41,107 nt of DNA. It comes from a virus. Shown one piece after another: positions 1-41,107 of the stretch. A model generated the notes under the pieces. That model did no database searches. It was not told the origin of the DNA and saw only the letters and a list, made by a program, of their open reading frames with translations. Numbering within the stretch: the stretch's first letter is position 1; every line of letters starts with the position of its first letter. The translations under genes were made by a program, and so were the position numbers. The stretch lies in the IMG/VR virus record IMGVR_UViG_3300045988_093172; one strand, given 5' to 3'.

Positions 1-89
1 GAGTCACCATGGGCATCACCGTCGTCTTCGGTACGTCCGTTGCGACCATCTTCGGGGTCTTCCTTATCCCCATGATGTTCATCATCGTA
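1..89. repeat. Left copy of the 89-bp perfect direct repeat bounding the window (identical to 41019..41107). Candidate attL / attP core; alternatively terminal redundancy or a circular-assembly overlap.
   Basis: Read directly. Bases 1-89 (gagtcaccatgggcatcacc...gttcatcatcgta) recur exactly at 41019-41107, so the window starts and ends with the same sequence. The 3' end of the integrase gene lies 83 bp away. Confidence 0.95.
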
Positions 90-161
90 GAAACATTCGG
101 ACACAATAAGAAATCCTTTAGTGTGATGAAGGAAACTGTGGAAGATAAGCGCCTACATTAG
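3..161 (+). CDS. 3'-terminal fragment of a membrane transporter gene whose 5' end lies outside the window. The last TM helix resembles TM12 and the C-terminus of RND (AcrB/MexB-type) efflux permeases.
   Basis: Frame 3 is open from the window edge: VTMGITVVFGTSVATIFGVFLIPMMFIIVETFGHNKKSFSVMKETVEDKRLH, with stop TAG at 159-161. The pattern G..V..G...AT.....F..P..F..V followed by a charged tail matches my recollection of the AcrB C-terminus ([28 protein letters not shown]). The first 29 codons lie inside the 89-bp repeat. No search was possible. Confidence 0.45.
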   Translation, partial: VTMGITVVFGTSVATIFGVFLIPMMFIIVETFGHNKKSFSVMKETVEDKRLH

Positions 162-171
162 CACCTTTTGT

Positions 172-1239
172 CTACACGGGTAACGTCATGTGACACGTGG
201 GGAAGGAGTGTGTATAATACTTTAGGGTAGTCTCGATATTCGAGTGTCCCATAAGCATACTCACGGTCTTAACGTCCACATGGAATACCGTGATGAGCAA
301 GGTAGCATAGGTGTGTCTTGTGTCGTACAGATGGTGTCCCTTGGAACTCCCTAGTACGACTTCTACATACTTCTTAAAACGAACATTCACATTATCCTTA
401 CTTAGATAACCGTAGGTACTCTTCTCAGACCTGAAGATGCTTACGGTTTTCTTTTCGATTTTGTCTAATAACCACAGACCCCACTTTGTCTCTATGGGAA
501 CCTCCCGTATACTTGTGGGAGTCTTCATGGTTTCCTGTAGCTTGCCTTGGAATCCCAGTGACTTGTTGAAGGACACTCTGTCTTCCTTAATGTCTTCTCT
601 GGTTAAGGCAAGTATTTCCTGTGGTCTTGCTCCCGTAATAAAGGAAAGCACAATGTACACTTGGTATACCACAGGTAGGGTAGACAAATTCTCAATAGAT
701 AACAACTTCTGGACTTCCTCTAGGGAGAACACCTTCTTTTGTCTCTCTTGTCTTCCTTTTAACCTCCTTATGGCTTGTCGGGATTCCATAGGGTTGTTCT
801 CAAGATACCCTTCGAGTACCGCTGTTTCTAGGATAGCTTTAAAGTTTTTCCTCCAGCGATCTAGGGTAGTAGTGGCATAGCCCCTTGAGGATAACCCTAG
901 GAAAAACCGATTAATGTCCTGAGGTGTTAGGTCAGAGAACTTTATATGAGCTACCTTGCTGTTTTCTACATGTTTTCGATAGAATTGCTTTAGACCATTT
1001 AAGGTAGACTCACGGTATACTCCCGATTTAAGTTCCATGAAGTGTTCATAGTATTCTGCTACGGTAACAGGGGAGAAGTATTTGATGTCTTTCCCTTTGA
1101 TGTCCATGAAGAACTTCTGGCACTCCTCACGTGTATCAAAGGTTTTACTAACTCGCTTACCTCCTGATACGGTGATAGTGGCCTTGAATCTTCCATTGGG
1201 TCTCCTCACGATTGACCCTGTACCTTTGGTTCTTCTCAT
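172..1239 (-). CDS. int: Tyrosine recombinase / phage integrase (355 aa) with an arm-binding-type N-terminus
   Basis: The ORF track gives 172..1365. I place the start at ATG 1239 (MRRTKGTGSIVRRPNGRFKATITV...) because GGAGG lies 5 nt upstream. The N-terminus resembles the integrase arm-type DNA-binding domain. The C-terminus carries the catalytic signature HHLYDTRHTYATLL ... LMGHSNIETTLKYYTH (R..HxxR..Y). Confidence 0.9.
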   Translation of the reverse strand: MRRTKGTGSIVRRPNGRFKATITVSGGKRVSKTFDTREECQKFFMDIKGKDIKYFSPVTVAEYYEHFMELKSGVYRESTLNGLKQFYRKHVENSKVAHIKFSDLTPQDINRFFLGLSSRGYATTTLDRWRKNFKAILETAVLEGYLENNPMESRQAIRRLKGRQERQKKVFSLEEVQKLLSIENLSTLPVVYQVYIVLSFITGARPQEILALTREDIKEDRVSFNKSLGFQGKLQETMKTPTSIREVPIETKWGLWLLDKIEKKTVSIFRSEKSTYGYLSKDNVNVRFKKYVEVVLGSSKGHHLYDTRHTYATLLITVFHVDVKTVSMLMGHSNIETTLKYYTHSFPTCHMTLPV

Positions 1240-1481
1240 GTAACCTCCTTTCCTTTTCCTCATGTACTTTATGTATACCATGGATTTTGAAAAATTACAA
1301 AAAATTTCTGAGGACATACATGAATGAACAGCACACAGCAGTTCCCCCGTATACCCCTCAGTCATCCACAGTTACAATAATTGAACACTTGCTCATTTCT
1401 TCATATATCATTATGTTTTACATAACGGCACGTAGTACCATAAGTAACTCGTGTATCCGCATGGTTGAGCCATTTATAATA

Positions 1482-1515
1482 ACCCTGTTGCCTTAACGGT
1501 AGCGGGGTATTTTTT
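1482..1515 (+). terminator. Candidate plus-strand intrinsic terminator upstream of (antisense to) the int promoter region
   Basis: ACCCTGTTGCC-TTAAC-GGTAGCGGGGT forms an 11-bp stem if three G-U pairs are allowed. It is followed by ATTTTTT on the plus strand only. No plus-strand gene ends here. Confidence 0.35.
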
Positions 1516-1770
1516 CGATATATGAATGATTGCTCATACGTTATATATTTTTGAACATTTGTTCAATTAGGATTTTACAGTTGTTCAATGGATATTGCTT
1601 TAGGATATATTGATAAATTTCGATATATCTATATGTTTTTTCATGTATTACATATCTGTATAATACAGAACACTCATGTATTTCCACACACTATCACATA
1701 GGTAATACATGGCATACCTTCAGAATATTGCTATTACAAACTATATGAGTACCGCAATATTTATATAAAA

Positions 1771-2163
1771 TTACTTACGGAACCACACAATACAAACAGC
1801 ACCTAAAAGACAAATTGTTAAACCAACAACATAAATAGAAAGTATATCGACTTGTTTTTGTAGTCCTGTATTCTTCTTTATTATATCATTGATAGTCTTT
1901 GTATTTTTGTCTATCCTTGAACCTTGTAGTTCGTCCATTTGGACAGTATAAGACAATACCTCATCTAAACGTTGATTAGAAGTTAAAGCCTCGGGATTGA
2001 ATATACTTCCTTTGTGTGTGTCATTATACCATAGAACAAAGGCATTGTAACTACTACGATCCCATTTGTCTGATTTCCAGTCGTAAGCAAAGCCTAAAGA
2101 AAGATAAGATGAAAATAGGAAGAAGAGAAGTATAATTTTTAATGGGGAAAACATCTTATTCAC
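1771..2163 (-). CDS. Small membrane protein of the lysogeny module (130 aa; N-terminal signal/TM and C-terminal TM). Candidate lysogenic-conversion or superinfection-exclusion protein.
   Basis: The N-terminus MNKMFSPLKIILLFFLFSSYLSLGFA is hydrophobic, as is the C-terminus ILSIYVVGLTICLLGAVCIVWFRK. RBS GAGGTG lies before the ATG. The gene sits between int and the repressor on the same strand, separated from the repressor by a terminator. I recognise no homolog. Confidence 0.6.
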   Translation of the reverse strand: MNKMFSPLKIILLFFLFSSYLSLGFAYDWKSDKWDRSSYNAFVLWYNDTHKGSIFNPEALTSNQRLDEVLSYTVQMDELQGSRIDKNTKTINDIIKKNTGLQKQVDILSIYVVGLTICLLGAVCIVWFRK

Positions 2164-2202
2164 CTCAACTATATGTAATCTATGAGAATATTATATCAAA
2201 AA

Positions 2203-2253
2203 GGGAGGCACTTTAGAATACTCTTATTATCTAAAGTGCCTCCCTTTTTTTTT
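2203..2253. terminator. Bidirectional intrinsic terminator between the repressor gene and the membrane-protein gene
   Basis: A perfect 14-bp stem, GGGAGGCACTTTAG (2203-2216) / CTAAAGTGCCTCCC (2231-2244), is flanked by AAAAA on the left and a T9 run on the right. Confidence 0.8.
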
Positions 2254-2266
2254 ATTTTTACCACCT

Positions 2267-2464
2267 TTATTTTAATTCAAGTATTTCATCTGCCGATATA
2301 TTATAGTACCTCGCCAGCTTGCGTATAACATCTATTTTAGGTTCCCTGGTGCCGTATTCGTAGCGTTGATATACCTGTTCTTTTATCCCTAAGGCCTCTG
2401 CTACTTCTTTTTGTGTCTTTTCTCGTTCTTCTCTCAGTTGTTTTAGTTTTTTATTAAGACTCAT
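2267..2464 (-). CDS. XRE-family HTH repressor (65 aa, cI-like position, no peptidase domain)
   Basis: MSLNKKLKQLREEREKTQKEVAEALGIKEQVYQRYEYGTREPKIDVIRKLARYYNISADEILELK is a typical HTH_3 fold signature. I move the start from 2497 to ATG 2464 because AAGGAAGGA precedes it and the longer version would run into the operator/promoter. Confidence 0.85.
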   Translation of the reverse strand: MSLNKKLKQLREEREKTQKEVAEALGIKEQVYQRYEYGTREPKIDVIRKLARYYNISADEILELK

Positions 2465-2484: not shown

Positions 2485-2513
2485 TTGACACAACCAAATG
2501 GTTGTTGTATTAT
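2485..2513 (+). promoter_or_regulatory. Host (sigma70-type) early rightward promoter: TTGACA-17 bp-TATTAT
   Basis: TTGACA lies at 2485-2490 and TATTAT at 2508-2513, with a 17-bp spacer filled by operator O1. A TATAAT on the opposite strand (2509-2514) could serve the repressor gene, giving back-to-back divergent promoters. Confidence 0.6.
2490..2505. promoter_or_regulatory. Operator O1: 16-bp palindrome ACAACCAAATGGTTGT
   Basis: Perfect inverted half-sites ACAACCA / TGGTTGT. It lies in the spacer of the rightward promoter and between the leftward -10 and the repressor RBS. Confidence 0.7.
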
Positions 2514-2523
2514 AATAATGCAG

Positions 2524-2539
2524 ACAGCCAAATGGTTGT
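2524..2539. promoter_or_regulatory. Operator O2: ACAGCCAAATGGTTGT
   Basis: The same 16-mer with one mismatch, 34 bp centre-to-centre from O1. Confidence 0.65.
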
Positions 2540-2609
2540 CACAGTCTTATTATATCATATGTCATGGGGTCAAACAAGAGTTGAAAATAAATTAAAAATA
2601 ACTCTTGAC

Positions 2610-2625
2610 ACAGCCAAATGGTTGT
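2610..2625. promoter_or_regulatory. Operator O3: ACAGCCAAATGGTTGT, preceded by a second TTGACA (2605-2610)
   Basis: The 22-nt block CTCTTGACACA(A/G)CCAAATGGTTGT is duplicated at 2481-2505 and 2601-2625. The -10 for this second copy is weak (AAAAAT at 2628-2633). Confidence 0.6.
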
Positions 2626-2646
2626 CAAAAAATTTTAATCTTATAC

Positions 2647-2662
2647 ACAGCCATTTGGCTGT
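2647..2662. promoter_or_regulatory. Operator O4: ACAGCCATTTGGCTGT
   Basis: Perfect palindrome ACAGCCA/TGGCTGT, 37 bp from O3 and just upstream of the RBS of the first early gene. Confidence 0.6.
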
Positions 2663-2681
2663 TAAGGGAGGCAATCATATT

Positions 2682-3044
2682 ATGACAAACTTAGAAACCA
2701 CACAAAAAATCAATGCTAACAAAATCTTTACCTGCACGCGGCGGGAATTTACACCTGATTTTAAAGCAATGGTAGTTAAAGAATATGAAGCAGGAGCTAC
2801 TAGAAAAGAATTAGCTAGAAAGTACGACATCTTGCCACACTATATTAATCGCTGGCAACAACGAGTACAAAAAGTAACACAAAGTATAAATGAAGAAACT
2901 AAAAGATACAAAGCACAAATTATAGAAAAGCACCAGAAAGAAATAGACAAGAAAGTAGAAGAACAGAATATTCAACAGGAATTACAAGCACTACGTGCTG
3001 AAAACAAGGCACTTAAAACATTGTTAAAAGTGTATATGAAATAA
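2682..3044 (+). CDS. First early gene: HTH protein resembling IS3-type transposase OrfA (HTH_Tnp_1) with a C-terminal coiled coil. Sits in the Cro / excisionase / regulator position.
   Basis: I start it at ATG 2682 (RBS AAGGGAGG) rather than 2502, since the upstream part of the ORF is the operator region. RREFTPDFKAMVVKEYEAGATRKELARKYDILPHYINRWQQRV resembles the IS3/IS911 OrfA HTH. A heptad-rich tail follows (LQALRAENKALKTLLK). Confidence 0.6.
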   Translation: MTNLETTQKINANKIFTCTRREFTPDFKAMVVKEYEAGATRKELARKYDILPHYINRWQQRVQKVTQSINEETKRYKAQIIEKHQKEIDKKVEEQNIQQELQALRAENKALKTLLKVYMK

Positions 3045-5064: not shown

Positions 5065-5130
5065 TACACCGAACAAGTGTTTGATATACTAGAGAATAGA
5101 ACAAGCGTTCGTAATATAGGAGGTGTCATA

Positions 5131-5361
5131 ATGAATCGCTATGCATATGTAGGAAGGCCCTGCCAGCTAGAGCAGGAAATAGAAGACCTTCAGACACAAG
5201 GATATTGTTTGTTCAGCCGCTTCACAGGCTCAGAAGGGGGACGCAAGGTGAAGCAGGAACTAGCTAGGGTACAGCAAGTCTTCCCTGACAGGCAGTATGT
5301 CGTACTCAAGGGAGGCAAGACTCATAAGGATACATATAAGCAAGCCATATTATTCAAGTAA
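5131..5361 (+). CDS. Small early protein, unknown function (76 aa)
   Basis: Start moved from 5077 to ATG 5131 because of the strong RBS TAGGAGGTG 5 nt upstream. It is the last gene before the early terminator. Confidence 0.5.
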   Translation: MNRYAYVGRPCQLEQEIEDLQTQGYCLFSRFTGSEGGRKVKQELARVQQVFPDRQYVVLKGGKTHKDTYKQAILFK

Positions 5362-5365: not shown

Positions 5366-5417
5366 TAGCAGGTAACTGAATATGAAAAAAGTGTCATTCA
5401 GTTACCTGCTATTTTTA
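5366..5417 (+). terminator. Intrinsic terminator closing the host-transcribed early operon, immediately upstream of the RNAP gene
   Basis: A 16-bp perfect stem, TAGCAGGTAACTGAAT (5366-5381) / ATTCAGTTACCTGCTA (5396-5411), is followed by TTTTTA. Confidence 0.8.
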
Positions 5418-5427: not shown

Positions 5428-5447
5428 AACCAAACATAGGTTTGGTT
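5428..5447. promoter_or_regulatory. Palindrome AACCAAAC-ATAG-GTTTGGTT abutting the RNAP-gene promoter
   Basis: Eight-bp inverted arms whose right arm overlaps the first two bases of the phage promoter. The same CCAAAC-N4-GTTTGG geometry occurs at 8302-8317. Confidence 0.5.
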
Positions 5448-5468
5448 AATTGTCACACATTCTAGGAG
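5446..5468 (+). promoter_or_regulatory. Phage RNAP promoter, variant copy, directly upstream of the RNAP gene
   Basis: TTAATTGTCACACATTCTAGGAG shares the invariant TAATTGTCACACAT. It differs from the other copies in the initiation region (TTCTAGGAGG versus ACAGAGGA). The AGGAGG doubles as the RBS for ATG 5480. Confidence 0.75.
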
Positions 5469-5479
5469 GAGGAATAAAA

Positions 5480-8041
5480 ATGATGACATTAGAACAACAA
5501 TTAGAACTTGAAAAGATGTACAAAGGCTTAGCAGAAAATCGTGCTTTGCAGGTGTTGAACAAGGCAAAAGCTGACGGGGCCTATGAACGGACAAAGGTTG
5601 GTCAAGGTGTCATGAATCACCTAGCAGAAACCTATACGAAAAACGTAGAAGCCTTTGTTACAGACTGCTTACAGCCGAAACGTGGGGTTCAACCTGCATA
5701 CGCAAAAATCGTCAAGGACTACGTACTGGCCCTAGGTGGAGACACACAGAAATTTTCAAGACTCTGTGCTACTTTGTCTCTTAAAATGGCCCTTAGTGCC
5801 ATGATGAGACGTTCCCATGTAGCTAACAATATTGGGGGTGCAATCGGTCTTGAACTGGAACCAGAAGTAGAAGCAATGGCTTTCTTTGCAGACAAGAACA
5901 ATGTCAAGCGTTTTAACAAGGCCATTAGCTCCCGTGTAGGCTTTTCCTATCGTAGAATCTTCATGGAACATGTCTATGAAGGTGTTGGATTTACCTTTGT
6001 CAAGCATACAGCGAAAGAAAGAACGTCTTTAGGTATGCAGTTGTTAGCTGTCCTAGTGGAAACGACGGACTTCTTTGTCTTTCAAGAAGTATCTGAAGAT
6101 GGCAAGACACAGCCTTTACAGTTACTTCCTACAGATATCTTCTTAAAAGCGATAGCCAATGCAGAAGACAAGAGTATCAGCCTAGCTATTACGTATGTAC
6201 CGACTATCATCCCTCCGAAACCATGGACTAGCATGTGGGACGGGGGTTACTATGGGGCTTTGTCTCAGAATAAAACCTTAATGCGTTACATCCCCTATGC
6301 AAGGTCTTCACAGACACGCAAGTTATACACTAGTAGACTCAATGAACTTGATCTATCTAGTTTATACTCAGCTGTCAATGCGATTCAAGCAACGGCCTAT
6401 AGAATCAACAAACCCGTGCTGGACATTCTCAAGTATTACCTAAGTATCGGCGGTGGCATTGCAGGACTAGCAGAGACAAAACCACTTGAACAGCTTCCAC
6501 GGTTCCCTCATGCCTATGAAGACATTAAGGAAGATGAAGAACTACTCAAGGCGTTCAAGGCACACAAAAAGAAGATGGTAGAAGTTGTACACAAGGAAAA
6601 TCAGCGAAAAGGGAAAGCCCTGAGAGCTGTCATGATTCTGAAGACCGCTGAAGATTTTGCTAAGTATGACTCAATCTGGTTCCCCATGAACATTGACTTT
6701 CGGGGCCGTGTCTATCCGATTCCTACGGGTCTCAACCCTCAAGGGGACGACATGACAAAATCCTTATTACAGTACGCTAACCCCGTCCCTGTGTCTACTG
6801 AAGACGCTCCCGACGCTATCAATTGGTTAGCAATCCACGGGGCAGGACTGGCAGGTCACGACAAGATTCCTCTGGAAGACCGTGTAGCATGGGTAGAGGA
6901 AAACAAGCAGAACATTTTGTCTAGTGCTGAAAATCCGCTGGACTTCCCATGGTGGCAGGAGCAGGACAAGCCATGGCAGTTCTTAGCGTGGGCCATGGAG
7001 TACAAACGGGCCTTAGAATACCTTGACAGCCATGGAACCCTAGCAGGTTTTGACTGCCGTTGTACAATCGCTTACGACGGGACTTGCTCAGGACTCCAGC
7101 ATTACAGTTGTCTGCTCCGTGACCCTGTAGGCGGTTCCGCTGTCAACTTGATTGACCACGATAAACCTTCAGATATTTATAGAGAAGTTTCGGATAAGGT
7201 ATTGACAATGGTCAAGAAAGATGTTATGGAAGGAACCACAAAAGGCAAGGAACGAAAAGACGGCACATTTGGGCCAGGGACAAAGCAAATGGCAGAAGCA
7301 TGGCTGGCACATGGCATTAATCGGAAAGTGTGCAAGCGCCCCGTCATGACCCTAGCTTACGGGAGTGGTCAATACGGATTCGCTGACCAAATCTATGAAG
7401 ACACCACGAGGGACAACCCCCACTTTGCAGGTGTCGGGGATAGACAAGCCGCTCAGTACCTAGCTAAGTTGACATGGAAGGCTGTACAGACAACCGTTGT
7501 AGCCGCTATTGAAGGTATGGAATGTTTGAAGAAGATTGCCACGGCCCTTGCAAAAGCCGATATGCCTGTCGAATGGGTAACACCTATGGGGCTTCCAATT
7601 CAGCAGATGTATCTAGCACGAAAGACAGAATCTTTCCAGCTCCGCCTAGGAAATGCTTCTACACGCTACCGTATCTACGTAACGACGGTTAGCGAAAACG
7701 AGGATGTAGACAGACACAAGCAAGCAACAGGGGTAGCTCCCAATTTCATCCACTCCCTCGACGCTACTCACTTGATGATGAGCATTAATGAAGCAAGTAA
7801 AGAAGGGTGTGTGAACTTCAGTACCGTTCATGATTCTTTCGGAACGTCCCTCGGTGAAGCGGCTCGATTACGCCGTATTATCAGACAACAGATGGTTAAG
7901 TTGTACACGGAGCATGATCCCTTAGCGGATTTCCTGAGACACGCTGAAGAGCTGTTAGGGGAACCACTGGACATTGAACTTCCTAAAAAGGGTTCCTTAG
8001 ACATTAACTGTATCTTAGATAGCAAGTTCGTTTTTCACTAG
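5480..8041 (+). CDS. Single-subunit DNA-directed RNA polymerase (T7 gp1-like, 853 aa)
   Basis: YDGTCSGLQHYSCLLRD, KRPVMTLAYGS and TVHDSFGT match the T7 RNAP palm motifs FDGSCSGIQHFSAMLRD, KRSVMTLAYGS and VHDSFGT. Start placed at ATG 5480 (RBS AGGAGGAGG) rather than 5450, which lies inside the promoter. Confidence 0.97.
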   Translation: MMTLEQQLELEKMYKGLAENRALQVLNKAKADGAYERTKVGQGVMNHLAETYTKNVEAFVTDCLQPKRGVQPAYAKIVKDYVLALGGDTQKFSRLCATLSLKMALSAMMRRSHVANNIGGAIGLELEPEVEAMAFFADKNNVKRFNKAISSRVGFSYRRIFMEHVYEGVGFTFVKHTAKERTSLGMQLLAVLVETTDFFVFQEVSEDGKTQPLQLLPTDIFLKAIANAEDKSISLAITYVPTIIPPKPWTSMWDGGYYGALSQNKTLMRYIPYARSSQTRKLYTSRLNELDLSSLYSAVNAIQATAYRINKPVLDILKYYLSIGGGIAGLAETKPLEQLPRFPHAYEDIKEDEELLKAFKAHKKKMVEVVHKENQRKGKALRAVMILKTAEDFAKYDSIWFPMNIDFRGRVYPIPTGLNPQGDDMTKSLLQYANPVPVSTEDAPDAINWLAIHGAGLAGHDKIPLEDRVAWVEENKQNILSSAENPLDFPWWQEQDKPWQFLAWAMEYKRALEYLDSHGTLAGFDCRCTIAYDGTCSGLQHYSCLLRDPVGGSAVNLIDHDKPSDIYREVSDKVLTMVKKDVMEGTTKGKERKDGTFGPGTKQMAEAWLAHGINRKVCKRPVMTLAYGSGQYGFADQIYEDTTRDNPHFAGVGDRQAAQYLAKLTWKAVQTTVVAAIEGMECLKKIATALAKADMPVEWVTPMGLPIQQMYLARKTESFQLRLGNASTRYRIYVTTVSENEDVDRHKQATGVAPNFIHSLDATHLMMSINEASKEGCVNFSTVHDSFGTSLGEAARLRRIIRQQMVKLYTEHDPLADFLRHAEELLGEPLDIELPKKGSLDINCILDSKFVFH

Positions 8042-8124: not shown

Positions 8125-8147
8125 CTAATTGTCACACATACAGAGGA
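8125..8147 (+). promoter_or_regulatory. Phage RNAP promoter
   Basis: CTAATTGTCACACATACAGAGGA, preceded by GTTTGG as at two other copies. Confidence 0.8.
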
Positions 8148-8151
8148 ACCC

Positions 8152-8233
8152 CCTAAGTATTCCTAAGTAACTAAAGGAAGACTAATTAGGTTTAAGTAGG
8201 AGTAAGTATAGTTAAGTATTCCTAAGTATTCCT
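8152..8233. repeat. Array of 10-bp-phased TAAGTA(T)TCC repeats between tandem phage promoters
   Basis: AAGTA starts at 8155, 8165, 8194, 8204, 8214 and 8224. The 13-mer CCTAAGTATTCCT occurs at 8152, 8221 and again at 40840. Confidence 0.7.
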
Positions 8234-8243
8234 AGGGCTGAGA

Positions 8244-8266
8244 TTAATTGTCACACATACAAGGAA
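8244..8266 (+). promoter_or_regulatory. Phage RNAP promoter
   Basis: TTAATTGTCACACATACAAGGAA. Confidence 0.8.
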
Positions 8267-8301
8267 AGAAAAACTACTACTACTCTACCTCTGTGTCTAT
8301 C

Positions 8302-8340: not shown

Positions 8341-8371
8341 AAGGACACAAAATTTTCAAGGAGGTAAGGAC

Positions 8372-9844: not shown

Positions 9845-9845
9845 G

Positions 9846-34296: not shown

Positions 34297-35969
34297 ATAG
34301 TCAAAACTTGAAAGCGAGTGTCTCCTTTGTTGGGGATGGCACTACAAATAAATTTTACTTCGGGTTCGACTATATCAATAAGCAGTTCGTGAAGGTTCAA
34401 ATAGGTAATGAGGGGCAATCCCTCACCTATCCTTCCGACTATACTGTGGATGATAGAAGCGTCGTCCTGAAGGATACCCCTGCTGTGGGGGTGGCTATCA
34501 GGGTATATCGTGAGACTTCTTCAGATAGAATTGTTGAGTGGGCAGATGGTGCTTTTATTAAGGCTTCTCAGATGACACTGGAAAACTTACAGCAGTTACA
34601 CCTGATTGAAGAAGCTCAGGACTACCCTATACTAAACTCTTTGTCTACGTACCCTGATGGGGTTAACTTTAATGCTTTAGGTTCTCGTGTCATTAACGTA
34701 AGTGACCCCAAAGACCCTCAAGATGCCGTAACGAAGCATTACATGGAGAGCGTCCAGAATGGTTTTGTAGCGACCAATACAATCTTGGTACAGGAAGCAA
34801 CGAAGCAAGCGTCCGCCGCAAAGTCTTCTCAGGAAGTCGCTAAGACCTCGGAGACAAATGCAAAAACTTCGGAAACCAATTCTGAAATTTCTAATCAAAA
34901 AGCGAAGAAGTGGGCAGAAGCTACGGATTCTCCAGATGGTGAAGTGGATACGGATAGTACCACAGGGAAGACACAGAGTTCTAAAGAGTGGGCTTTGTAT
35001 AGCAAAACGAAGGCACAGGAAGCGGCAACGTCCGCAACGAACGCTAAGAGTTCTGAGACAAACGCAAAGACCTCTGAAACCAATGCGAAAACCTCGGAAA
35101 CCAATGCGAAGTCATCCGAAACGAAGGCAAAGACCTCAGAAACCAATGCAAAAACATCAGAAACTAATGCGAGTGCAAGTGCCTCTGCCAGTGCGTCTAG
35201 TGCTAGTGCGTCTGCTACGAGCGCCACTAATGCACATAATTCAGAGACGGCCGCCGCTAACAGTGCTAAACAGGCCGCAGAATCAGCAGGTGTCTTTCAG
35301 GACTTTAAGGGGAGCACATCGTCCGCAGATGGTCTTGGTGGTAAAGTTCCTAAACCTTTAGCAGGACAGCAGGAAAGGTATCTAAAAGCGGATGGCACAT
35401 GGAGTGACATTCCTAAATTAACCCCTAATACGCTGTGGGACACCATTCATTCTTATGGGAAGAACTATGTCCCTTCTGATACATCTAACGAAGGGTGGAA
35501 TAAATTAGGATTTGCTTCTATTTCTTACTCAGAGGTTAAGATTAATAATCAACCAAACCAGTATGGACAGCTTATTAATATTCCATACGATCAAGGAGCA
35601 GAGAGTACACAGTTGTGGTTAGATCAAGATACTGGTCTTATCCACTTTAGAGGGAGCAACGTAGCCGATATTGTGAATAATCTTCCCTTTAAAACTGTTG
35701 CTACTACAGATGATGTTAATGCCAGAGAAAAAGTGAATAGCCAAGGGGGCAACTGGATTCGGTATAAAAGTGGTTTACAACTTTGTTGGAACTCATGGAT
35801 TGATGCAGGTGCATGGTGGTCTTTCCCAGTTGCTTTTTCAGGGACTCCTGCTGTAACCATTACAGCTCGTACTGGTGATTGGCAGTGGGTTGATGGTCTT
35901 TCTAATACAGGCTTTACAAACAAGGGGAGTGGTGGTGCGTGTGCCATTGCAGTAGGAAGGTGGAAATAA
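34290..35969 (+). CDS. Tail fiber protein, with a T7 gp17-like N-terminal adaptor domain
   Basis: The N-terminus (FVGDGTTNKFYFGFDYINKQFVKVQIG...RVYRETSSDRIVEWADGAFIKASQMTLENLQQLHLIEEAQD) parallels T7 gp17 (LDGSNRDFNIPFEYLARKFVVVTLIG...[40 protein letters not shown]). The central region is repetitive and the C-terminal domain is unique. Confidence 0.9.
   Translation: MVNSQNLKASVSFVGDGTTNKFYFGFDYINKQFVKVQIGNEGQSLTYPSDYTVDDRSVVLKDTPAVGVAIRVYRETSSDRIVEWADGAFIKASQMTLENLQQLHLIEEAQDYPILNSLSTYPDGVNFNALGSRVINVSDPKDPQDAVTKHYMESVQNGFVATNTILVQEATKQASAAKSSQEVAKTSETNAKTSETNSEISNQKAKKWAEATDSPDGEVDTDSTTGKTQSSKEWALYSKTKAQEAATSATNAKSSETNAKTSETNAKTSETNAKSSETKAKTSETNAKTSETNASASASASASSASASATSATNAHNSETAAANSAKQAAESAGVFQDFKGSTSSADGLGGKVPKPLAGQQERYLKADGTWSDIPKLTPNTLWDTIHSYGKNYVPSDTSNEGWNKLGFASISYSEVKINNQPNQYGQLINIPYDQGAESTQLWLDQDTGLIHFRGSNVADIVNNLPFKTVATTDDVNAREKVNSQGGNWIRYKSGLQLCWNSWIDAGAWWSFPVAFSGTPAVTITARTGDWQWVDGLSNTGFTNKGSGGACAIAVGRWK
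35043..35168 (+). repeat. Six tandem 21-nt repeats encoding the heptapeptide AK(T/S)SETN inside the tail fiber gene
   Basis: AKSSETN AKTSETN AKTSETN AKSSETK AKTSETN AKTSETN. Two further units lie at 34839-34880, and an (S/A)n tract follows (35169-35228). Confidence 0.9.
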
Positions 35970-36355: not shown

Positions 36356-36573
36356 TGAAAGACTACATATACGAAATGATTGATTTACGAAATTCCCTAG
36401 ACAAAGAATGGGATAAATTAACGGATATTGTAAAAAAGGAATTCGGCAGTATTGATGACACAGAAGTATTCTTAATGAAGAAGCAGATAGAATTGACAGA
36501 AAAGTATATGGATGTTCTTGACGCTCGTATTTCCCTTGCCATCTTAAAGGAACAAAAGGAAGATGAAAAATGA
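36355..36573 (+). CDS. Hypothetical coiled-coil protein (72 aa)
   Basis: The ORF is translationally coupled to the holin gene (ATGA overlap). No motif. Confidence 0.5.
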   Translation: MKDYIYEMIDLRNSLDKEWDKLTDIVKKEFGSIDDTEVFLMKKQIELTEKYMDVLDARISLAILKEQKEDEK

Positions 36574-37040
36574 AACGAGGTACACTACACAAAATGATTA
36601 ACACACTATGGAACTTATGGACAGCCACAGAGGTAAAGATTGGCTGTCTTTTTTCTATTGCTTGGTTGTGTTTCAATCAGCTTGTGGGCGGTGTGGATGA
36701 GCAGATTAATGCTTTGGTTGTCCTTGTGGCTTGTGACATTCTCACAGGCCTTTGGGCTTCCTTCAAACTCCATGCCTTTGCAAGTTCGATTGCGACACAT
36801 GGCTTATATAAGAAGGCCGCTATGTTCCTTATCATTGGTCTGGGTGTCTTGCTTGATTCAGCGATGAACACTCACATGGTACGGACGTTATTCATTGGAG
36901 CCTTTGCAGTGGTAGAGGCTCTTAGTATTGTTGAAAATATTGATCGTGTTGGTTATGGGCAGTACATCCCTAGCTTTATCAGGGGTGCGCTCGCTCAGAT
37001 TGCAAAAGAGAAGAAGGTGGACAAATTAGATGACCAGTAA
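36570..37040 (+). CDS. Holin (Phage_holin_4 / toxin-secretion holin family)
   Basis: Multiple TM segments plus the family signature ...ALVVLVACDILTGL... and FAVVEALSIVENIDRVG (E..SI.EN....G). It lies directly upstream of the endolysin. Confidence 0.8.
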   Translation: MKRGTLHKMINTLWNLWTATEVKIGCLFSIAWLCFNQLVGGVDEQINALVVLVACDILTGLWASFKLHAFASSIATHGLYKKAAMFLIIGLGVLLDSAMNTHMVRTLFIGAFAVVEALSIVENIDRVGYGQYIPSFIRGALAQIAKEKKVDKLDDQ

Positions 37041-37623
37041 AGTAATTGACGTTTCCTATTATCAGCGCAATATTGATTATGATGCTGTAGAGGCCACAGG
37101 GGTTCAAGGTGTCATTATCAAAATTTCCGAAGGGTGTTCCGAAGAAGACACATGGGTAAGACACGCAGAAGAATGTAAGTCTAGGGGTATCCCTTGGGGT
37201 GTCTATTGCTTCACCCATGCTCAGACATCCGAAAGAGCAAGGGAAGAAGCTAAGACAGTTTTGGCACTCCTTGGTGATGATGTGCCACCTATGGGAATTT
37301 GGTACGATTGTGAAGCCGATGAATGTTTTGCAGAAGGGGTAGACACCACAGCCCTTTGTTCAGCCTTTATTGTCGCTTGCAATGAAGCAGGACACAGAGC
37401 AGGGATTTATACCTCCACTTTGAAATGCACTGACTACATGACAAACTCCATTCAGCCTAACTTGCTCGCTGACTATGTACCGTATTGGATTGCAGATTAC
37501 CGTGGATACAACGGGTTTGCACAGGACTACCCTGATAAGCATGTAGCAGGCTGGCAGTGGAGCGCACATGAATATATTGGAGACACCGAAGTAGATATGA
37601 ATGAATGGTATGAGGAGCTGTAA
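37030..37623 (+). CDS. Endolysin, glycoside hydrolase family 25 muramidase
   Basis: VIDVSYYQRNIDYDAVEATGVQGVIIKISEG...GIPWGVYCF...GIWYDCE fits the GH25 pattern (GIDVS.WQG.IDW..V...G..F..IK.TEG...GAYHF). Confidence 0.85.
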   Translation: MTSKVIDVSYYQRNIDYDAVEATGVQGVIIKISEGCSEEDTWVRHAEECKSRGIPWGVYCFTHAQTSERAREEAKTVLALLGDDVPPMGIWYDCEADECFAEGVDTTALCSAFIVACNEAGHRAGIYTSTLKCTDYMTNSIQPNLLADYVPYWIADYRGYNGFAQDYPDKHVAGWQWSAHEYIGDTEVDMNEWYEEL

Positions 37624-37950
37624 ATGGATGAAGACAACAAAAAATATTCTGCAAAGATGGTGCTTGTGTCTTTCACTGTTGGTGTGCTTTTGTGTCTTTC
37701 CCTCTGTGTCTACTTCTACAGTTCACGCACAGAGTCCACAGAAAGTCGAAATGTCAATCGAACAATTCAACAGCTTACGACAGATGGTGACAGAGCTACA
37801 GAAGCAGTCAACAGCGCAGAAACAGGACTCACAGAAGCTCAAGACACAGCTAACAGAATCTCAGAAAGAGCTGACGAAAGCGCAAGTGTACTTGACCGAT
37901 TACAAGCAGAACTTGACAGAATTGCAAAAGCAAACGGACTCTCTGAATAA
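37624..37950 (+). CDS. i-spanin-like ORF (108 aa): N-terminal TM segment plus a charged helical periplasmic domain
   Basis: MDEDNKKYSAKMVLVSFTVGVLLCLSLCVYFY is followed by a helix-prone E/A/R-rich sequence. ATG lies 6 nt after GAGGAG. It is almost completely overlapped by the next ORF in the +1 frame. Confidence 0.4.
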   Translation: MDEDNKKYSAKMVLVSFTVGVLLCLSLCVYFYSSRTESTESRNVNRTIQQLTTDGDRATEAVNSAETGLTEAQDTANRISERADESASVLDRLQAELDRIAKANGLSE

Positions 37951-38032
37951 GTCGGTAAAGCGGATGGAGCGACAGCGTGATTTGGCTTGGGTCGTTGCAG
38001 GTGGCTTGTTGATTTGGGGGTGTAGTCGGTAA
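37628..38032 (+). CDS. Second spanin-like ORF (134 aa): N-terminal signal peptide, Q/K/L-rich coiled coil, C-terminal TM segment
   Basis: MKTTKNILQRWCLCLSLLVCFCVFPSVSTSTVHA|Q..., heptad-rich LKTQLTESQKELTKAQ...LTELQKQTDSL, and a C-terminus DLAWVVAGGLLIWGCSR. Start taken at ATG 37628 rather than 37601, which lies inside the lysin gene. Stop is coupled to the next gene (TAATG). Confidence 0.5.
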   Translation: MKTTKNILQRWCLCLSLLVCFCVFPSVSTSTVHAQSPQKVEMSIEQFNSLRQMVTELQKQSTAQKQDSQKLKTQLTESQKELTKAQVYLTDYKQNLTELQKQTDSLNKSVKRMERQRDLAWVVAGGLLIWGCSR

Positions 38033-38232
38033 TGAAGGTGCGTATTAAGAATCCTGATAAGCCCTCGATGGCAAAAGCAATTCGTGCGAAGTGTATGAAT
38101 TGTGCAGGAGAACAGGAAGCAGAAGTGCGCAAATGTGCTATTGTTGATTGCCCTTTGTTTCCCTATCGCTTTGGGTGCAATCCTAAGTCATACATTAGTA
38201 GGAACAAGGATAACGTTAAAATTATCCCCTAG
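38032..38232 (+). CDS. Small Cys-rich (zinc-ribbon-like) protein (66 aa)
   Basis: AIRAKCMNCAGEQEAEVRKCAIVDCPLFPYRFG. This C..C....C...DCPL.P.R.G pattern recurs in small phage and plasmid proteins of unknown function, as far as I recall. Confidence 0.55.
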   Translation: MKVRIKNPDKPSMAKAIRAKCMNCAGEQEAEVRKCAIVDCPLFPYRFGCNPKSYISRNKDNVKIIP

Positions 38233-38261
38233 ACCGATTGAGATGCGTTTTACGGTTTTGT

Positions 38262-38304
38262 AACTCCCTGTAGGTGTATTTACCTATGGGGAGTTTTATT
38301 TTTA
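38262..38304 (+). terminator. Intrinsic terminator between the lysis cassette and the methyltransferase/terminase genes
   Basis: AACTCCCTGTAGGT (38262-38275) pairs with ACCTATGGGGAGTT (38282-38295), 12 of 14 bp, and is followed by TTATTTTT. Confidence 0.65.
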
Positions 38305-38319
38305 CGCAGGAGGCTTATA

Positions 38320-38775
38320 GTGGCTATTAATAATGTTTTATATAGTAGTGAAAGTGAAGTGTGGGAGACACCGAAAGACCTGTTTGACAAGCTGGATACT
38401 GAGTTCCATTTTGATATAGATGTATGCGCCTTACCTTTCAATGCTAAATGTACTACTTTCTTTACTCCAGATCAGGACGGCTTGAAGCAGAAGTGGGAAG
38501 GTGTCTGTTGGATGAATCCTCCTTACGGTAGGAAGATTGGGGCATGGATGAGCAAGGCCTTGGAGGCAAAGACAACGGTAGTGTGTCTCGTACCTGCTCG
38601 AACAGACACAAAGTGGTGGCATGAGTATGCTATGAAAGCCTCTGAAATTCGCTTTGTAAAAGGACGATTGAAGTTTGGTGACAGTAAAAACAGTGCACCA
38701 TTTCCCAGTGCGATTATCGTATTTAGAAAAAAAAATAATGAAAATATAAAGGTAACTAGCTTTGAGAAAGGATGA
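38320..38775 (+). CDS. DNA N6-adenine methyltransferase (phage Dam-like family)
   Basis: WETPKDLFDKLDTEFHFDIDVCA, CWMNPPYGR (NPPY catalytic motif) and LVPARTDTKWWH fit the phage N-6-adenine-methyltransferase family. GTG start with AGGAGG 6 nt upstream. Target specificity cannot be read from the sequence. Confidence 0.85.
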   Translation: MAINNVLYSSESEVWETPKDLFDKLDTEFHFDIDVCALPFNAKCTTFFTPDQDGLKQKWEGVCWMNPPYGRKIGAWMSKALEAKTTVVCLVPARTDTKWWHEYAMKASEIRFVKGRLKFGDSKNSAPFPSAIIVFRKKNNENIKVTSFEKG

Positions 38776-38779
38776 TAGT

Positions 38780-39055
38780 ATGAGTAAAATCAATCCGGAA
38801 CTGCTGGATATTCTGGCACAGGAAGAAGTTAATGCCTTGATTGAGGGTATTCAGAATGAAGACTTGAGACACAGCCCTCAGTTCTTGGCAAAAGTCAGAC
38901 AGTTCTTGAAAGACAATGAGCTGAAGACAACTCCTGAAACGACGACGCCTTTGGTGTCCATGGTTACAAAAGAATTGCCTGACTTCTTGGATGATGATGA
39001 AGATGAAGGGGGTGCTGTGAAGGGTGCAGGTTCAGTGGACTCCAGAGCAAATTGA
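38780..39055 (+). CDS. Terminase small subunit, T7 gp18-like
   Basis: Position directly upstream of terL, size (91 aa versus 89 aa), and a shared SPQ(F/L) segment plus acidic C-terminus as I recall them from T7 gp18. Start moved from 38762 to ATG 38780 (RBS GAAAGGA). Confidence 0.65.
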   Translation: MSKINPELLDILAQEEVNALIEGIQNEDLRHSPQFLAKVRQFLKDNELKTTPETTTPLVSMVTKELPDFLDDDEDEGGAVKGAGSVDSRAN

Positions 39056-40739
39056 AGCGGCTAAGAAAGACTTCAGGAAGTTCTTGTTTATCCTCTGGCA
39101 TGAGATAGCCCTTCCTGAACCGACAGACATACAGTATGCTATTGCGACACTCCTCATGAAATGCCCTGAGAAACGATATATCATTGAAGGGTTCCGTGGG
39201 GTAGCTAAGTCCTTCATTACTTGTGCTTATGTCGTATGGTCACTTTGGAATGACCCTCAACTGAAGTGTCTCATTATCTCTGCAAGTAAAGACAGAGCAG
39301 ATGCAAACGCCGTGTTTATCCGAAAGATAATCTACTTACTAGACTTTTTGTCTCACCTAAAACCTCGTGACGGACAGCGTAACACTCAGAATCTTTTTGA
39401 TGTTGGGGAAGCCGTAGCGGATATTTCCCCCTCTGTAAAGTCTGTTGGTATTACGGGTCAGATAACAGGTAGCCGTGCGGACATACTGATTGCGGATGAC
39501 GTAGAGATTCCCAATAATTCCAGTACACAGACACGGAGGGACAAGCTGTTTGAGGATGTTAAGGAATTTGATGCCATTATCAAGCCGGGGGATAGAAGTA
39601 AGGTTATATACCTCGGTACTCCGCAGAACGAAATGTCTCTGTACAATGAGCTTCAGAATCGTGGATATTCCTGCTATATTTTCCCGCTGGTATACCCTGA
39701 GACACCAGAAGAGCGTGAGTATTACGGGGACAAATTAGCTCCTTTTATTGCTACCCCTTACGACAAAAACCCTGCTCTGTATGCAGGAAAGCCGACTGAC
39801 CCTAGAAGATTCCCTGAAGAGGAAATTGAGGAACGTCGGCAGTCCTACGGTAAAGCAGGGTTTTCCTTACAGTTCAAACTGAATACGAACTTGTCTGACT
39901 ACGAAAAATATCCCCTGAAGACACAGGACTTGATTGTGTCTAATGTGGACATGGATGAAACCTCTTTGAAGTGGTCATGGTCAAGCGGTTATGAGTATCG
40001 TCTGAATGACCTCCCCTGTGTCGCCATTAAGGGCGACTTTTTCTATCGTGAGCATAGTAGAAGCCAGGAGACAGCTAAGTATACAGGATGTGTTATGGCT
40101 GTTGACCCTTCTGGTAGAGGTACTGACGAGACTGCCTACGCTATCGTGAAGTACCTGAATGGGTATCTCTTTGTAGTAGAAGTAGGAGGTTTTCAGGATG
40201 GTTACTCAGATGCCGTGTTGACACAGCTGGCTAACAAGGCTAAAATCCATGGAGTTAATGAGATTATCGTAGAAGCAAACTTTGGGGACGGTATGTTCAC
40301 TCAGCTATTCAAGCCTATCCTGACGAGTATTTACCCCTGTGCTGTACAGGAAGTGAAGAACACAGTACAGAAGGAAGCTCGTATTATAGACACCTTAGAA
40401 CCTGTTATGATGAGACACAAGATTATCATGACTGAGACAGTTATTCGTGATGATTACAGCGTGTATGAGGAAAAGGGACAGAAATATTCGCTGATTTACC
40501 AGATGACCCGTCTGAGTAGAGATAGGGGTTCATTGGCACACGATGACCGCTTAGATGCCCTGACTATGGCTGTGTCTTACTGGTTGGATGTCATGGATAG
40601 AGATTACCAGACTGGACTGGATGAACAGTTAGAAGAATTTCTGGAGACAGCTCTGGATGATGATCGGGGTCTGTTCTCTATGATGTATGGAGAAGTAGAA
40701 GATAGTAGTAATAGGAACATCATGAAGAAAAAATGGTAA
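39024..40739 (+). CDS. Terminase large subunit, T7 gp19-like
   Basis: FRGVAKSFITCAYVVWSLWNDPQLKCLIISASKDRADANAVFIRK, SVGITGQITGSRADILIADDVEIPNNS, VIYLGTPQNEMSLYNEL and LAHDDRLDAL closely parallel T7 gp19. GTG start at 39024. Confidence 0.95.
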   Translation: MQVQWTPEQIEAAKKDFRKFLFILWHEIALPEPTDIQYAIATLLMKCPEKRYIIEGFRGVAKSFITCAYVVWSLWNDPQLKCLIISASKDRADANAVFIRKIIYLLDFLSHLKPRDGQRNTQNLFDVGEAVADISPSVKSVGITGQITGSRADILIADDVEIPNNSSTQTRRDKLFEDVKEFDAIIKPGDRSKVIYLGTPQNEMSLYNELQNRGYSCYIFPLVYPETPEEREYYGDKLAPFIATPYDKNPALYAGKPTDPRRFPEEEIEERRQSYGKAGFSLQFKLNTNLSDYEKYPLKTQDLIVSNVDMDETSLKWSWSSGYEYRLNDLPCVAIKGDFFYREHSRSQETAKYTGCVMAVDPSGRGTDETAYAIVKYLNGYLFVVEVGGFQDGYSDAVLTQLANKAKIHGVNEIIVEANFGDGMFTQLFKPILTSIYPCAVQEVKNTVQKEARIIDTLEPVMMRHKIIMTETVIRDDYSVYEEKGQKYSLIYQMTRLSRDRGSLAHDDRLDALTMAVSYWLDVMDRDYQTGLDEQLEEFLETALDDDRGLFSMMYGEVEDSSNRNIMKKKW

Positions 40740-40758
40740 TTGTCACACATATATACAA
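40736..40758 (+). promoter_or_regulatory. Phage RNAP promoter, variant copy overlapping the terminase stop codon
   Basis: GTAATTGTCACACATATATACAA. The invariant 14-mer is present but the initiation region is divergent. Confidence 0.65.
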
Positions 40759-40763
40759 AGTCG

Positions 40764-40786
40764 TTAATTGTCACACATACAGAGGA
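40764..40786 (+). promoter_or_regulatory. Phage RNAP promoter (consensus copy) at the extreme right end, pointing toward the 89-bp repeat
   Basis: TTAATTGTCACACATACAGAGGA, identical to 8318-8340. Its position is equivalent to T7 phiOR. Confidence 0.85.
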
Positions 40787-40801
40787 AAGCAGAGGAAAAC
40801 T

Positions 40802-40882
40802 AAAGTATATCTAAGTATTTCCTCTGTTCCTCTAGTATACCTAAGTATTCCTTAGTATTACAGTTAGGAGTCCTTTAGTATC
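40802..40882. repeat. 10-bp-phased (T/A)AGTAT repeats downstream of the right-end promoters
   Basis: AGTAT starts at 40804, 40814, 40834, 40844, 40854 and 40877. The array contains the 13-mer CCTAAGTATTCCT (40840-40852), shared with the 8152-8233 array. Confidence 0.7.
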
Positions 40883-40887
40883 CTAAA

Positions 40888-40958
40888 GAACCCCGAACCT
40901 TAGGAACTCAAAGGGAACACAACTGGAACCCTAAGAGAACTCCGTAGGAACTCACTAA
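40888..40958. repeat. 11-bp-phased GGAAC/GAGAAC repeats next to the 89-bp repeat
   Basis: GAAC starts at 40888, 40895, 40904, 40915, 40926, 40937 and 40948; the last five are exactly 11 bp apart. Units are TTAGGAACTCA / AAGGGAACACA / ACTGGAACCCT / AAGAGAACTCC / GTAGGAACTCA. Confidence 0.7.
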
Positions 40959-41018
40959 GGAAAAGCACCAACAACTACACCTAACTACCTCCTATAAAGA
41001 ACTACTAAGAGGAACCCA

Positions 41019-41107
41019 GAGTCACCATGGGCATCACCGTCGTCTTCGGTACGTCCGTTGCGACCATCTTCGGGGTCTTCCTTATCCCCATGATGTTCAT
41101 CATCGTA
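41019..41107. repeat. Right copy of the 89-bp perfect direct repeat (candidate attR / attP core)
   Basis: Identical to 1-89. The transporter-like frame is closed by TAA at 41006-41008, 4 codons upstream of this copy, so the coding-looking sequence starts essentially at the repeat boundary. Confidence 0.95.

Follow-up and report, generated by a model that had tools for sequence, protein, structure and literature searches.

Sequence evidence for a temperate T7-like podophage that integrates into an RND permease gene of gut Megasphaera

Results

A T7-like genome with an attachment site at its ends

The stretch of DNA analysed here (IMG/VR virus record IMGVR_UViG_3300045988_093172; 41,107 bp, taken whole and hereafter called the window) consists of a 41,018-bp T7-like phage and an 89-bp terminal repeat, and we read it, with a probability of roughly 0.85 on the strength of sequence comparisons, as belonging to a temperate T7-like podophage that is functional, complete and apparently active and whose host is human-gut Megasphaera (Negativicutes, diderm Firmicutes). 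Genes for a T7-type single-subunit RNA polymerase (RNAP; 5480..8041, + strand; PF00940, E 1.4e-104; phrog_414, E 3e-233, full length), replication, virion and terminase follow one another co-linearly on one strand, and only the genes for the integrase (int), a 127-aa protein (p127) and an XRE repressor lie on the other. An earlier reading of the letters alone (the sequence-only reading) had proposed a temperate T7-like phage with this gene order, a proposal that is supported by all four forms of the attachment site (att), an intact integrase, a repressor and its operators.

The terminal repeat is exact (1-89 = 41019-41107), as the sequence-only reading had it, but in integrated contigs the identity between attL and attR runs 106 bp, not 89, and corresponds to window 1-106. 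The left copy of the att core occupies 1..106 (+; 1-89 being the terminal repeat, with the attR/attB identity continuing to 106), and the right copy (41019..41107, +) holds the first 89 of its 106 bp. Translated in frame, the repeat reads VTMGITVVFGTSVATIFGVFLIPMMFIIV, the last transmembrane helix of a host RND permease, and the phage supplies a substitute 3' end of this host gene (...ETFGHNKKSFSVMKETVEDKRLH*; 90..161, +), with which a 1053-aa open reading frame (ORF) stays open in lysogens. All four att forms were found: host contigs hold attL and attR, and an attP junction and empty attB sites occur as well. In two of the loci collected for comparison (L001 and L002), exact-protein look-ups place the integrase next to a 1053-aa ACR_tran gene, past which lie host genes for MFP, TetR, ThiW, ThiM, FtsY and SMC, and contig k109_6435 (ENA ERZ27293780) shows 100% identity to the window with host DNA at both flanks. 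Of the integrated copies, L002/L007 match the window at 100% identity and L001 at 96.9%. Two NCBI Megasphaera sp. genomes, L098 (GCA_041327815.1) and L099 (GCA_027494185.1), carry the prophage at this RND site too, and in Megasphaera sp. AM44-1BH (L038) the site is occupied by a prophage that is only 65-68% identical. A 41,022-bp contig from a different metagenome (L006, JGI 3300056060), again 100% identical, joins terL, attP and int directly. Empty sites, in which left flank, core and right flank are contiguous, were seen in M. elsdenii MSK.21.52 (L029), MGYG-HGUT-00612 (L024) and others, the core of these two differing at 2 of 106 positions. Together, these junctions indicate that recombination by the tyrosine integrase takes place between the 106-bp attP core and its identical counterpart at the 3' end of the host RND efflux-permease gene.

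Since the 89-bp repeat codes for part of a host protein and has host DNA around it, and the identity extends to 106 bp, we take it for an att site and rejected a T7-type direct terminal repeat or an assembler overlap. An att site in a tRNA gene was likewise rejected: a tRNA scan of the window returned none, and the core is the 3' end of the RND permease gene. The lysogen permease shares 98% protein identity with that of UMGS1114, whose att core is only 89% identical to that of the phage (window 1-106 versus L010 and L011), and both attL and attR of the lysogen are 100% phage-like across the 106 bp; this pattern suggests that the core either varies between strains or has been converted by the phage.

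With the permease as probe against one genome per species, the host genus was determined as Megasphaera (98% identity to UMGS1114, 96% to strain WILCCON 0056). RNAP sequences at least 98% identical to that of the window were found on dozens of contigs of ~41 kb to 2.7 Mb, one cluster of which is NCBI-named Megasphaera sp., and contigs of about 40-41.7 kb that carry the RNAP are many. Identity to the RNAP of any isolated phage is ~35% at most (Studiervirinae RNAPs), and a nucleotide search against 50,697 phage records gave only 50-nt intron-like matches and no related genome. The left arm recurs in ENA, JGI, Logan and NCBI assemblies, and because these independent assemblies share it we rejected the assembly chimera that the sequence-only reading had raised as a way to be wrong. 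The other ways that it had named fared alike, as integrated copies and empty sites exist and integrase and repressor are intact and conserved; for these reasons, taken together, we hold the phage to be temperate. A more distant group of T7-like prophages (L101-L103), which has hundreds of member sequences and an RNAP identity of 43%, lies within gut-metagenome contigs of up to 480 kb, the RNAP side of which has no integrase.

The integrase and its surroundings

The tyrosine integrase (172..1239, - strand; PF00589, E 2.7e-15; phrog_1, E 1e-53), which the sequence-only reading had placed correctly, is encoded 4.2 kb upstream of the RNAP gene. Its closest relatives (~28% identity) come from temperate phages of Streptococcus, Lactobacillus and Bacillus (Firmicutes) and of Fusobacterium, for example Sfi21 and TP-J34, and in an alignment to Tn1549 Int the motifs TGARPQE, KT..S.R, RHT, GHSN and YYTH are visible. 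The genome thus presents itself as a cross-phylum mosaic, made up of a T7-type backbone and an integrase nearest to those of temperate Firmicutes/Fusobacterium phages. The holin and endolysin families of the window are ones that we take to be typical of Firmicutes phages.

Upstream of int extends an AT-rich non-coding region (1240..1770) with a strict GAAC-N4-GTTC box at 1553-1564, of which only 1291-1358 is kept in siblings without the lysogeny module. It is followed by the gene for p127 (1771..2154, -), a predicted membrane protein and moron with a possible role in superinfection exclusion. Relatives differ in the small membrane-protein gene that they carry here, between int and the repressor slot.

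A predicted repressor switch with four operators

The repressor gene (2267..2464, -) encodes a 65-aa protein of the XRE/Cro-C1 type (HTH_3, E 3.8e-18) that consists of the HTH only (residues 7-61); the family searches gave no MarR match for this regulator. Behind the gene lies a hairpin terminator (2198..2249) with a perfect 20-bp stem (-32.6 kcal/mol), and ahead of it a switch region of ~180 bp (2485..2665) holds promoters and four palindromic 16-bp operators, O1-O4 (2490-2505, 2524-2539, 2610-2625 and 2647-2662). The operators take the form ACA(A/G)CCAAATGG(T/C)TGT, which occurs nowhere else in the window (6 strand-matches versus 0.48 expected, a number that 0/100 shuffles reach). Two rightward sigma70-like promoters, TTGACA-17-TATTAT (2485-2513; 11/12 matches) and TTGACA-17-AAAAAT (2605-2633; 10/12), each carry an operator in the spacer, and the other two operators cover the -35 of weaker leftward promoter candidates (2542-2515 and 2665-2638). 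No XRE operator lies near any phage promoter. Both the repressor with its four operators and the host-promoter-driven early operon had been described from the letters alone, and both descriptions hold.

Comparison with relatives revealed that the occupant of the repressor slot changes from locus to locus. Loci with an XRE gene (the window, L001, L092, L096, L097 and L098) have 3-5 operator-like sites each, and the operator sequence co-varies with the XRE variant, three operator variants being present among them. In L091, L094, L095 and L038 the slot is taken by a small RHH-looking ORF (two different types of 49-55 aa, classed by eye without a family search) and operators are absent, and L089 and L090 have neither repressor gene nor operators. 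Operator-like sites are hence confined to loci with an XRE gene, indicating that repressor and operators travel together.

An early operon that ends in a terminator ahead of the RNAP gene

The early operon begins with the gene for a 120-aa HTH_Tnp_1-like DNA-binding protein (2682..3044, +; family search), for which we infer a Cro-like role or that of an excision factor. Next come genes for the unknown proteins p142 (3144-3572, +) and p252 (3676-4434, +) and for a SprT-like metalloprotease (4516-5064, +), all three of which are also present in the siblings without the lysogeny module. Of the left 5.4 kb, which the sequence-only reading had set apart as not T7-like, only ~1-3044 is specific to lysogeny; 3044-5400 belongs to the early operon and is also found in L089 and L090. 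An intergenic element, ATTTAACAGAG-hairpin-TCGATTAAGTCC, is conserved between early genes (3573-3635, 4435-4500 and L038 16797-16853) and is reminiscent of the RNase III processing sites that separate the early genes of T7.

The last gene before that of the RNAP encodes p76 (76 aa; 5131..5361, +), a clade-restricted protein that has no Pfam or PHROG match and homologues solely within the clade; its AlphaFold2 (AF2) model is confident (pLDDT 84.5), yet found no match with E <0.03 in PDB or BFVD. An internal host-type promoter (5070..5111, +) lies in the 66-bp gap before p76, where CGAACAAGTGTTTG and AGAACAAGCGTTCG stand on either side of an extended -10, TGATATACT, at 5082-5090. Both sites fit, with one deviation each, the LexA consensus CGAAC-N4-GTTCG of Gram-positive bacteria (PMC4551915), which may not be that of Megasphaera.

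Downstream of p76 we located an intrinsic terminator (5366..5417, +) with a 16-bp perfect stem (-26.1 kcal/mol; z = -8) followed by UUUUUAU, and then a palindrome, CCAAACATAGGTTTGG, and a variant phage promoter, TAATTGTCACACATTCTAGGAGGA (together 5430..5470, +), directly upstream of the RNAP gene. The variant promoter is 30 nt past the terminator, with the RNAP start codon immediately after it, and departs from the consensus near the start site (by T7 analogy at positions -3, -1 and +1). The order terminator, phage promoter, RNAP gene is kept in 10 relatives with 87-99% RNAP identity and in the 57%-identical L038.

Candidate promoters for the phage RNAP

A search for the motif TAATTGTCACACATACAG (18-24 nt) with up to 3 mismatches returned nine sites, 7 near-identical and 2 weaker, all on the + strand and against 0.04 expected, and we read this motif as the promoter that the phage's own RNAP would recognise. 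Four consensus copies follow the RNAP gene (8126, 8245, 8319 and 9199, +; within 8126..9222), and two promoters at the right end (40737..40788, +) lie past terL and point across attP. A second class of late promoters was not seen in the intergenic gaps between 9 and 40 kb. Transcripts from the right-end promoters would run antisense through int, p127 and the repressor gene when the DNA is circular or concatemeric; in the prophage, these promoters face host DNA. Beside the promoter clusters after RNAP and terL there are arrays of 10-nt AGTATTCCTAAGTATT-type repeats (8152-8238 and 40794-40859), which might serve as an origin or in the processing of concatemers.

Palindromes of the form RAAC-N4-GTTY, such as the CCAAACATAGGTTTGG mentioned above, sit 1-2 nt upstream of 3 of the 7 phage promoters (at 5430-5445, 8109-8124 and 8302-8317) and are kept beside the phage promoters of relatives, including L089 and L090. 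A single binder for these palindromes and the XRE operators was considered and rejected, as the half-sites differ (ACAACCAA versus CCAAACAT) and the palindromes persist in relatives with another or no gene in the repressor slot.

Siblings without the lysogeny module

Two IMG/VR contigs, L089 (1-14152; a partial 14-kb contig) and L090 (1-10698), are close siblings of the window, with terL 98% and RNAP 90% identical. Their homology to the window runs up to 40982 and resumes at 3044, with only 1291-1358 kept in between, and they are thus devoid of the att core, int, p127, the XRE gene, the operators and the HTH_Tnp_1 gene; where the lysogeny module would be, L089 has two good sigma70 promoters and two small genes. 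The intergenic promoter ahead of p76 is missing from both, and the hairpin before the RNAP gene is retained (-20 kcal/mol) with its U-run cut to UUUAU in L089 and gone in L090. Because a remnant of 60-69 bp from upstream of int has been kept, we suggest that the two arose by deletion from a temperate ancestor, and from the parts that are missing we infer that they are lytic. Every element to which we would ascribe a function in locking lysogeny is either missing or weakened in L089 and L090, and this supports the functional reading of these elements. In this sense, the two contigs would document a temperate-to-lytic transition within one lineage.

The T7-like backbone

Family searches support the T7-like order from RNAP through terL that had been read from the letters, with several amendments. 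The DNA-metabolism block (8372..20054, +) comprises DUF3310, dUTPase, a gp2.5-like single-stranded DNA-binding protein, endonuclease I, a T7-type primase-helicase, NrdG, NrdD, a split DNA polymerase, a thymidylate synthase-like protein and a 5'-3' exonuclease. The genes for NrdG (12234-12725, +) and NrdD (12930-14717, +), omitted from the earlier list, lie between those of primase-helicase and DNA polymerase; with an anaerobic NrdD and the activase NrdG, the T7-type replication module suits a host that is an obligate anaerobe, and the pair also occurs in L101-L103. The 121-aa ORF at 10318-10683, which had been labelled gp3.5-like, has no family match, and the label is therefore unsupported.

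The DNA polymerase gene, earlier listed without regard to its pieces, is interrupted, with polymerase matches in 14883-16274 and 16864-17424. The insert contains an EndoVII/HNH ORF (16502-16783) and a match to the group I intron family RF00028 (16609-16844) whose score of 33.4 bits is under the gathering score of 50; at gathering thresholds Rfam found nothing in the window. The interruption is probably an intron. The 50-nt matches to Bacillus phage PBS1 and a Rhizobium phage fall inside this insert, the ORF beside the polymerase (17406-18101) has no family match, and in L098 the polymerase ORF is unbroken for at least 617 aa.

The virion block (20219..35969, +) encodes a weak gp7.3-like match, portal, scaffold, capsid, tubular tail proteins A and B, proteins at the core positions and a tail fibre with a T7-tail-fibre N-domain. 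Homologues of gp14 and gp16 occupy internal-core positions, whereas the 751-aa protein at the gp15 position, one of the three core proteins of the earlier list, has no family match. The tail-fibre gene contains tandem 21-nt repeats at 34797-35168 (7 aa, SETNAKT-like). Last in order is the lysis/packaging block (36570..40739, +), with a holin (Phage_holin_4_1), a GH25 muramidase endolysin (37030-37623, +) in the late lysis cassette, a 108-aa ORF that is without family match and spanin-like as read from its sequence, a Dam methylase, terS and terL.

Discussion

A proposed layered lock on a self-amplifying polymerase

The arrangement at the left end of the window suggests how a temperate phage might keep a self-amplifying RNAP loop silent in the lysogen. 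In a first layer, the XRE repressor would sit on the four operators inside the two host-type early promoters and shut the early operon. A second layer would be provided by the strong terminator at the operon end, which would stop leftover host-RNAP transcripts 60 bp before the RNAP gene, and a third by the RNAP gene's only own promoter, a weakened phage promoter that should be inert without pre-existing phage RNAP. Lytic entry would begin with read-through of the terminator, either from the derepressed early promoter or from the p76 promoter, which with its two SOS-box-like sites may be LexA-controlled. The first RNAP made in this way, even in a small amount, would start an autocatalytic loop and then serve the consensus promoters at 8.1-9.2 kb and 40.7 kb.

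Several observations weigh against a functional temperate phage that works in this manner. Family searches of the window found no S24 peptidase/cleavage domain in the 65-aa XRE repressor and no T7-lysozyme-type RNAP inhibitor (gp3.5 homologue), and no antirepressor was identified among the window genes. The first His of the integrase HxxR motif aligns to Tyr or sits displaced by two residues. Between 9.2 and 40.7 kb there is no strong phage promoter, the window having only 7. The SOS-like boxes are also found in L089 and L090, and the temperate relative L097 is without the p76 promoter. The 41-kb contig with the attP junction could be a concatemer or a circular replication form and is no proof of particles. 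The copies in L098 and L099 carry two insertion sequences (DDE_5 transposase), one in the int-XRE interval and one just past the RNAP gene, and have a shortened early operon that lacks p142, p252 and SprT; because of these insertions and losses, some prophages look like decaying ones.

A possible different trigger

One alternative leaves the phage as it is and concerns the trigger: host LexA, not inactivation of the XRE repressor, would gate induction, in that LexA, cleaved in the SOS response, releases the p76 promoter, read-through makes the first RNAP and the cascade proceeds with XRE still bound, while LexA-like boxes at three phage promoters act as an extra lock. We regard this as possible but doubtful. 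Two SOS-box-like sites bracket the extended -10 directly upstream of p76, and in ~650 kb of Megasphaera host DNA the strict motif is present at one orthologous coding site only; in the whole window, however, 2 strict boxes compare with 0.73 expected, which is not significant alone. The p76 promoter is kept in 10 relatives and deleted in L089 and L090, but it is also missing from L097, as noted above. Box-like sequences abut phage promoters as well, namely TGAACAAACGTTCT at the RNAP-gene promoter of the divergent L038 prophage and degenerate boxes (RAAC-N4-GTTY) at three promoters of the window (at 5432, 8111 and 8304), and no phage promoter carries an XRE operator. Against this, similar boxes persist in the left-end region and beside the phage promoters of L089 and L090, so that a protein encoded by the phage might bind them or they might serve another purpose. 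The collected Megasphaera loci contain no lexA gene from which the SOS box could be read, and the fold of p76, though confident, is unmatched in PDB and BFVD. Host LexA at SOS boxes controls lysogeny or induction in coliphage 186 (through Tum) and in CTXphi. A precedent for LexA as the prophage repressor itself is Bacillus thuringiensis phage GIL01, where the host protein acts in this capacity at SOS boxes (PMC4551915).

If LexA does bind, damage to DNA could set off RNAP synthesis through transcription that begins at the p76 promoter and passes the terminator while the XRE repressor stays in place, a route that we put forward tentatively. Joined to this trigger, and no firmer than it, is a scenario drawn from the natural pairs of temperate and module-less genomes at 98% terminase identity, in which a temperate T7-like phage becomes a "T7" by stepwise loss of att and int, the immunity cassette, the SOS promoter and the U-run of the terminator.

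Unlikely alternatives: a trapped or a virulent phage

It is also conceivable, though improbable in our view, that the element is cryptic and in decay, a T7-like prophage caught in the chromosome of Megasphaera that neither excises nor forms particles any longer. The two NCBI Megasphaera sp. copies with their insertion sequences and lost early genes would fit such a state, as would the non-canonical first His of the integrase HxxR. Yet all examined backbone ORFs are open except for the intron-interrupted DNA polymerase, the contig that joins terL, attP and int comes from another metagenome and is 100% identical to an integrated copy, and the RNAP is found on many contigs of ~40-41.7 kb. Ongoing spread is indicated by near-identical copies across many samples and by a repressor slot that holds genes of two kinds or more.

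We give almost no credence to an essentially virulent T7-like phage with a vestigial integrase and a repeat that is a T7-type terminal repeat or an assembler overlap. The short direct terminal repeats of T7-like genomes and the position of the 89-bp repeat between terL and the early region would suit it, but the repeat is host RND coding sequence with host DNA at both sides in lysogen contigs, occurs once and with the same flanks in phage-free genomes and involves no tRNA. That those contigs are chimeric is unlikely given the ENA, Logan and NCBI isolate assemblies. Cyanophage P-SSP7 is said to have long been argued to be such a virulent phage with a vestigial integrase.

Significance

Textbooks present T7 as the model of a strictly lytic phage, biotechnology relies heavily on its RNAP and promoter, and the T7-type backbone is otherwise known mainly from Proteobacteria and Cyanobacteria. 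That T7 has temperate relatives is a recent and thinly documented idea, for which the lineage described here gives proof of a temperate cycle at the level of sequence. Its siblings without the candidate lysogeny locks make two matters testable, the silencing of a self-amplifying RNAP loop and the origin of virulent T7-like phages. Possible parts for synthetic biology are a polymerase cassette that is insulated and activates itself, XRE-operator pairs that differ from one relative to the next, and a new pair of RNAP and promoter. In the literature we found no T7-like phage described for this host group (gut diderm Firmicutes); a survey of Negativicutes prophages mentions no T7-likes (bioRxiv 10.1101/606087), and T7-like prophage proteins of Megasphaera hexanoica are mentioned only in passing, as BLAST matches.

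Comparison with known systems

With coliphage T7 the window shares the single-subunit RNAP, the order of the gene 1-19 homologues and phage promoters, which are clustered after gene 1 beside repeats and recur after terL. T7, however, has no integrase, repressor or att site, and host promoters drive its gene 1, which lacks both an insulating terminator and its own promoter. Unlike T7, the window has anaerobic NrdDG and a lysis system of GH25 and holin_4_1, and no gp3.5 lysozyme homologue was found in it.

The switch resembles that of the lambdoid CI/Cro system at the sequence level, with divergent promoters overlapped by multiple operators, but the 65-aa XRE protein is missing the C-terminal S24 domain for self-cleavage and oligomerisation. 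In lambdoid phage populations, too, the gene in the repressor slot varies among close relatives. The likeness of the candidate p76 promoter to GIL01, in which LexA at SOS boxes controls lysogeny or induction, is a functional analogy only; GIL01 is a tectivirus and has neither an RNAP nor a CI-type repressor.

Temperate T7-like phages named in the LUZ100 study are a prophage of P. putida KT2440, integrase-bearing cyanophages, pelagiphages, Agrobacterium phage Pasto, the phages of Boeckman et al. 2022 and LUZ100 itself (PMC10134795). The statement of the sequence-only reading that a repressor switch coupled to an RNAP programme is not well described is accordingly outdated, for LUZ100 and, as that study relates them, the phages of Boeckman et al. 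2022 present one, with a repressor and with a terminator and a phage promoter ahead of the RNAP gene (PMC10134795). LUZ100 and the window have in common a T7-like backbone, a tyrosine integrase, a repressor upstream of the RNAP and a terminator and phage promoter at the RNAP gene; in the LUZ100 model, read-through of this terminator is followed by positive feedback (PMC10134795). The two differ in that LUZ100 has a MarR-like regulator co-transcribed with int, a tRNA-Leu beside int and a gammaproteobacterial host in which it forms no stable lysogens, whereas the window has an XRE repressor in a divergent multi-operator switch, an att site in a protein-coding gene and, in sequence data, lysogens, attP junction contigs and empty sites.

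For Boeckman et al. 2022 we rely on the account in the LUZ100 study (PMC10134795), according to which T7-like prophages are widespread, "to a lesser extent" in Gram-positives, virulent T7-likes are proposed to descend from temperate ancestors, and the logic of read-through and feedback is proposed also for the MarR-type temperate T7-likes. In that account, these phages (Pasto and others) are like the window integrase-bearing T7-likes that lysogenise and whose repressor is proposed to silence the RNAP, but their module is MarR-based, whereas ours is XRE-based with an RHH-looking ORF in some relatives, and a Firmicutes-phage-type integrase and siblings that document the loss of lysogeny set the present lineage apart. 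Pelagiphages of the HTVC019P type and cyanophage P-SSP7 are likewise T7-like podoviruses with a tyrosine integrase (bioRxiv 10.1101/410191; PMC1079782), and integration has been shown for pelagiphages (bioRxiv 10.1101/410191); their hosts are marine and their att sites lie in tRNA genes, in contrast to the 106-bp core at the 3' end of an RND permease gene. A prophage of P. putida KT2440 (PMC10134795) likewise has a T7-type order within a bacterial chromosome, its host belonging to another phylum. Temperate T7-like phages are thus already established, and what the Megasphaera lineage adds to them is the host group, the integration target, the type of switch, the affinity of the integrase and the siblings without the module.

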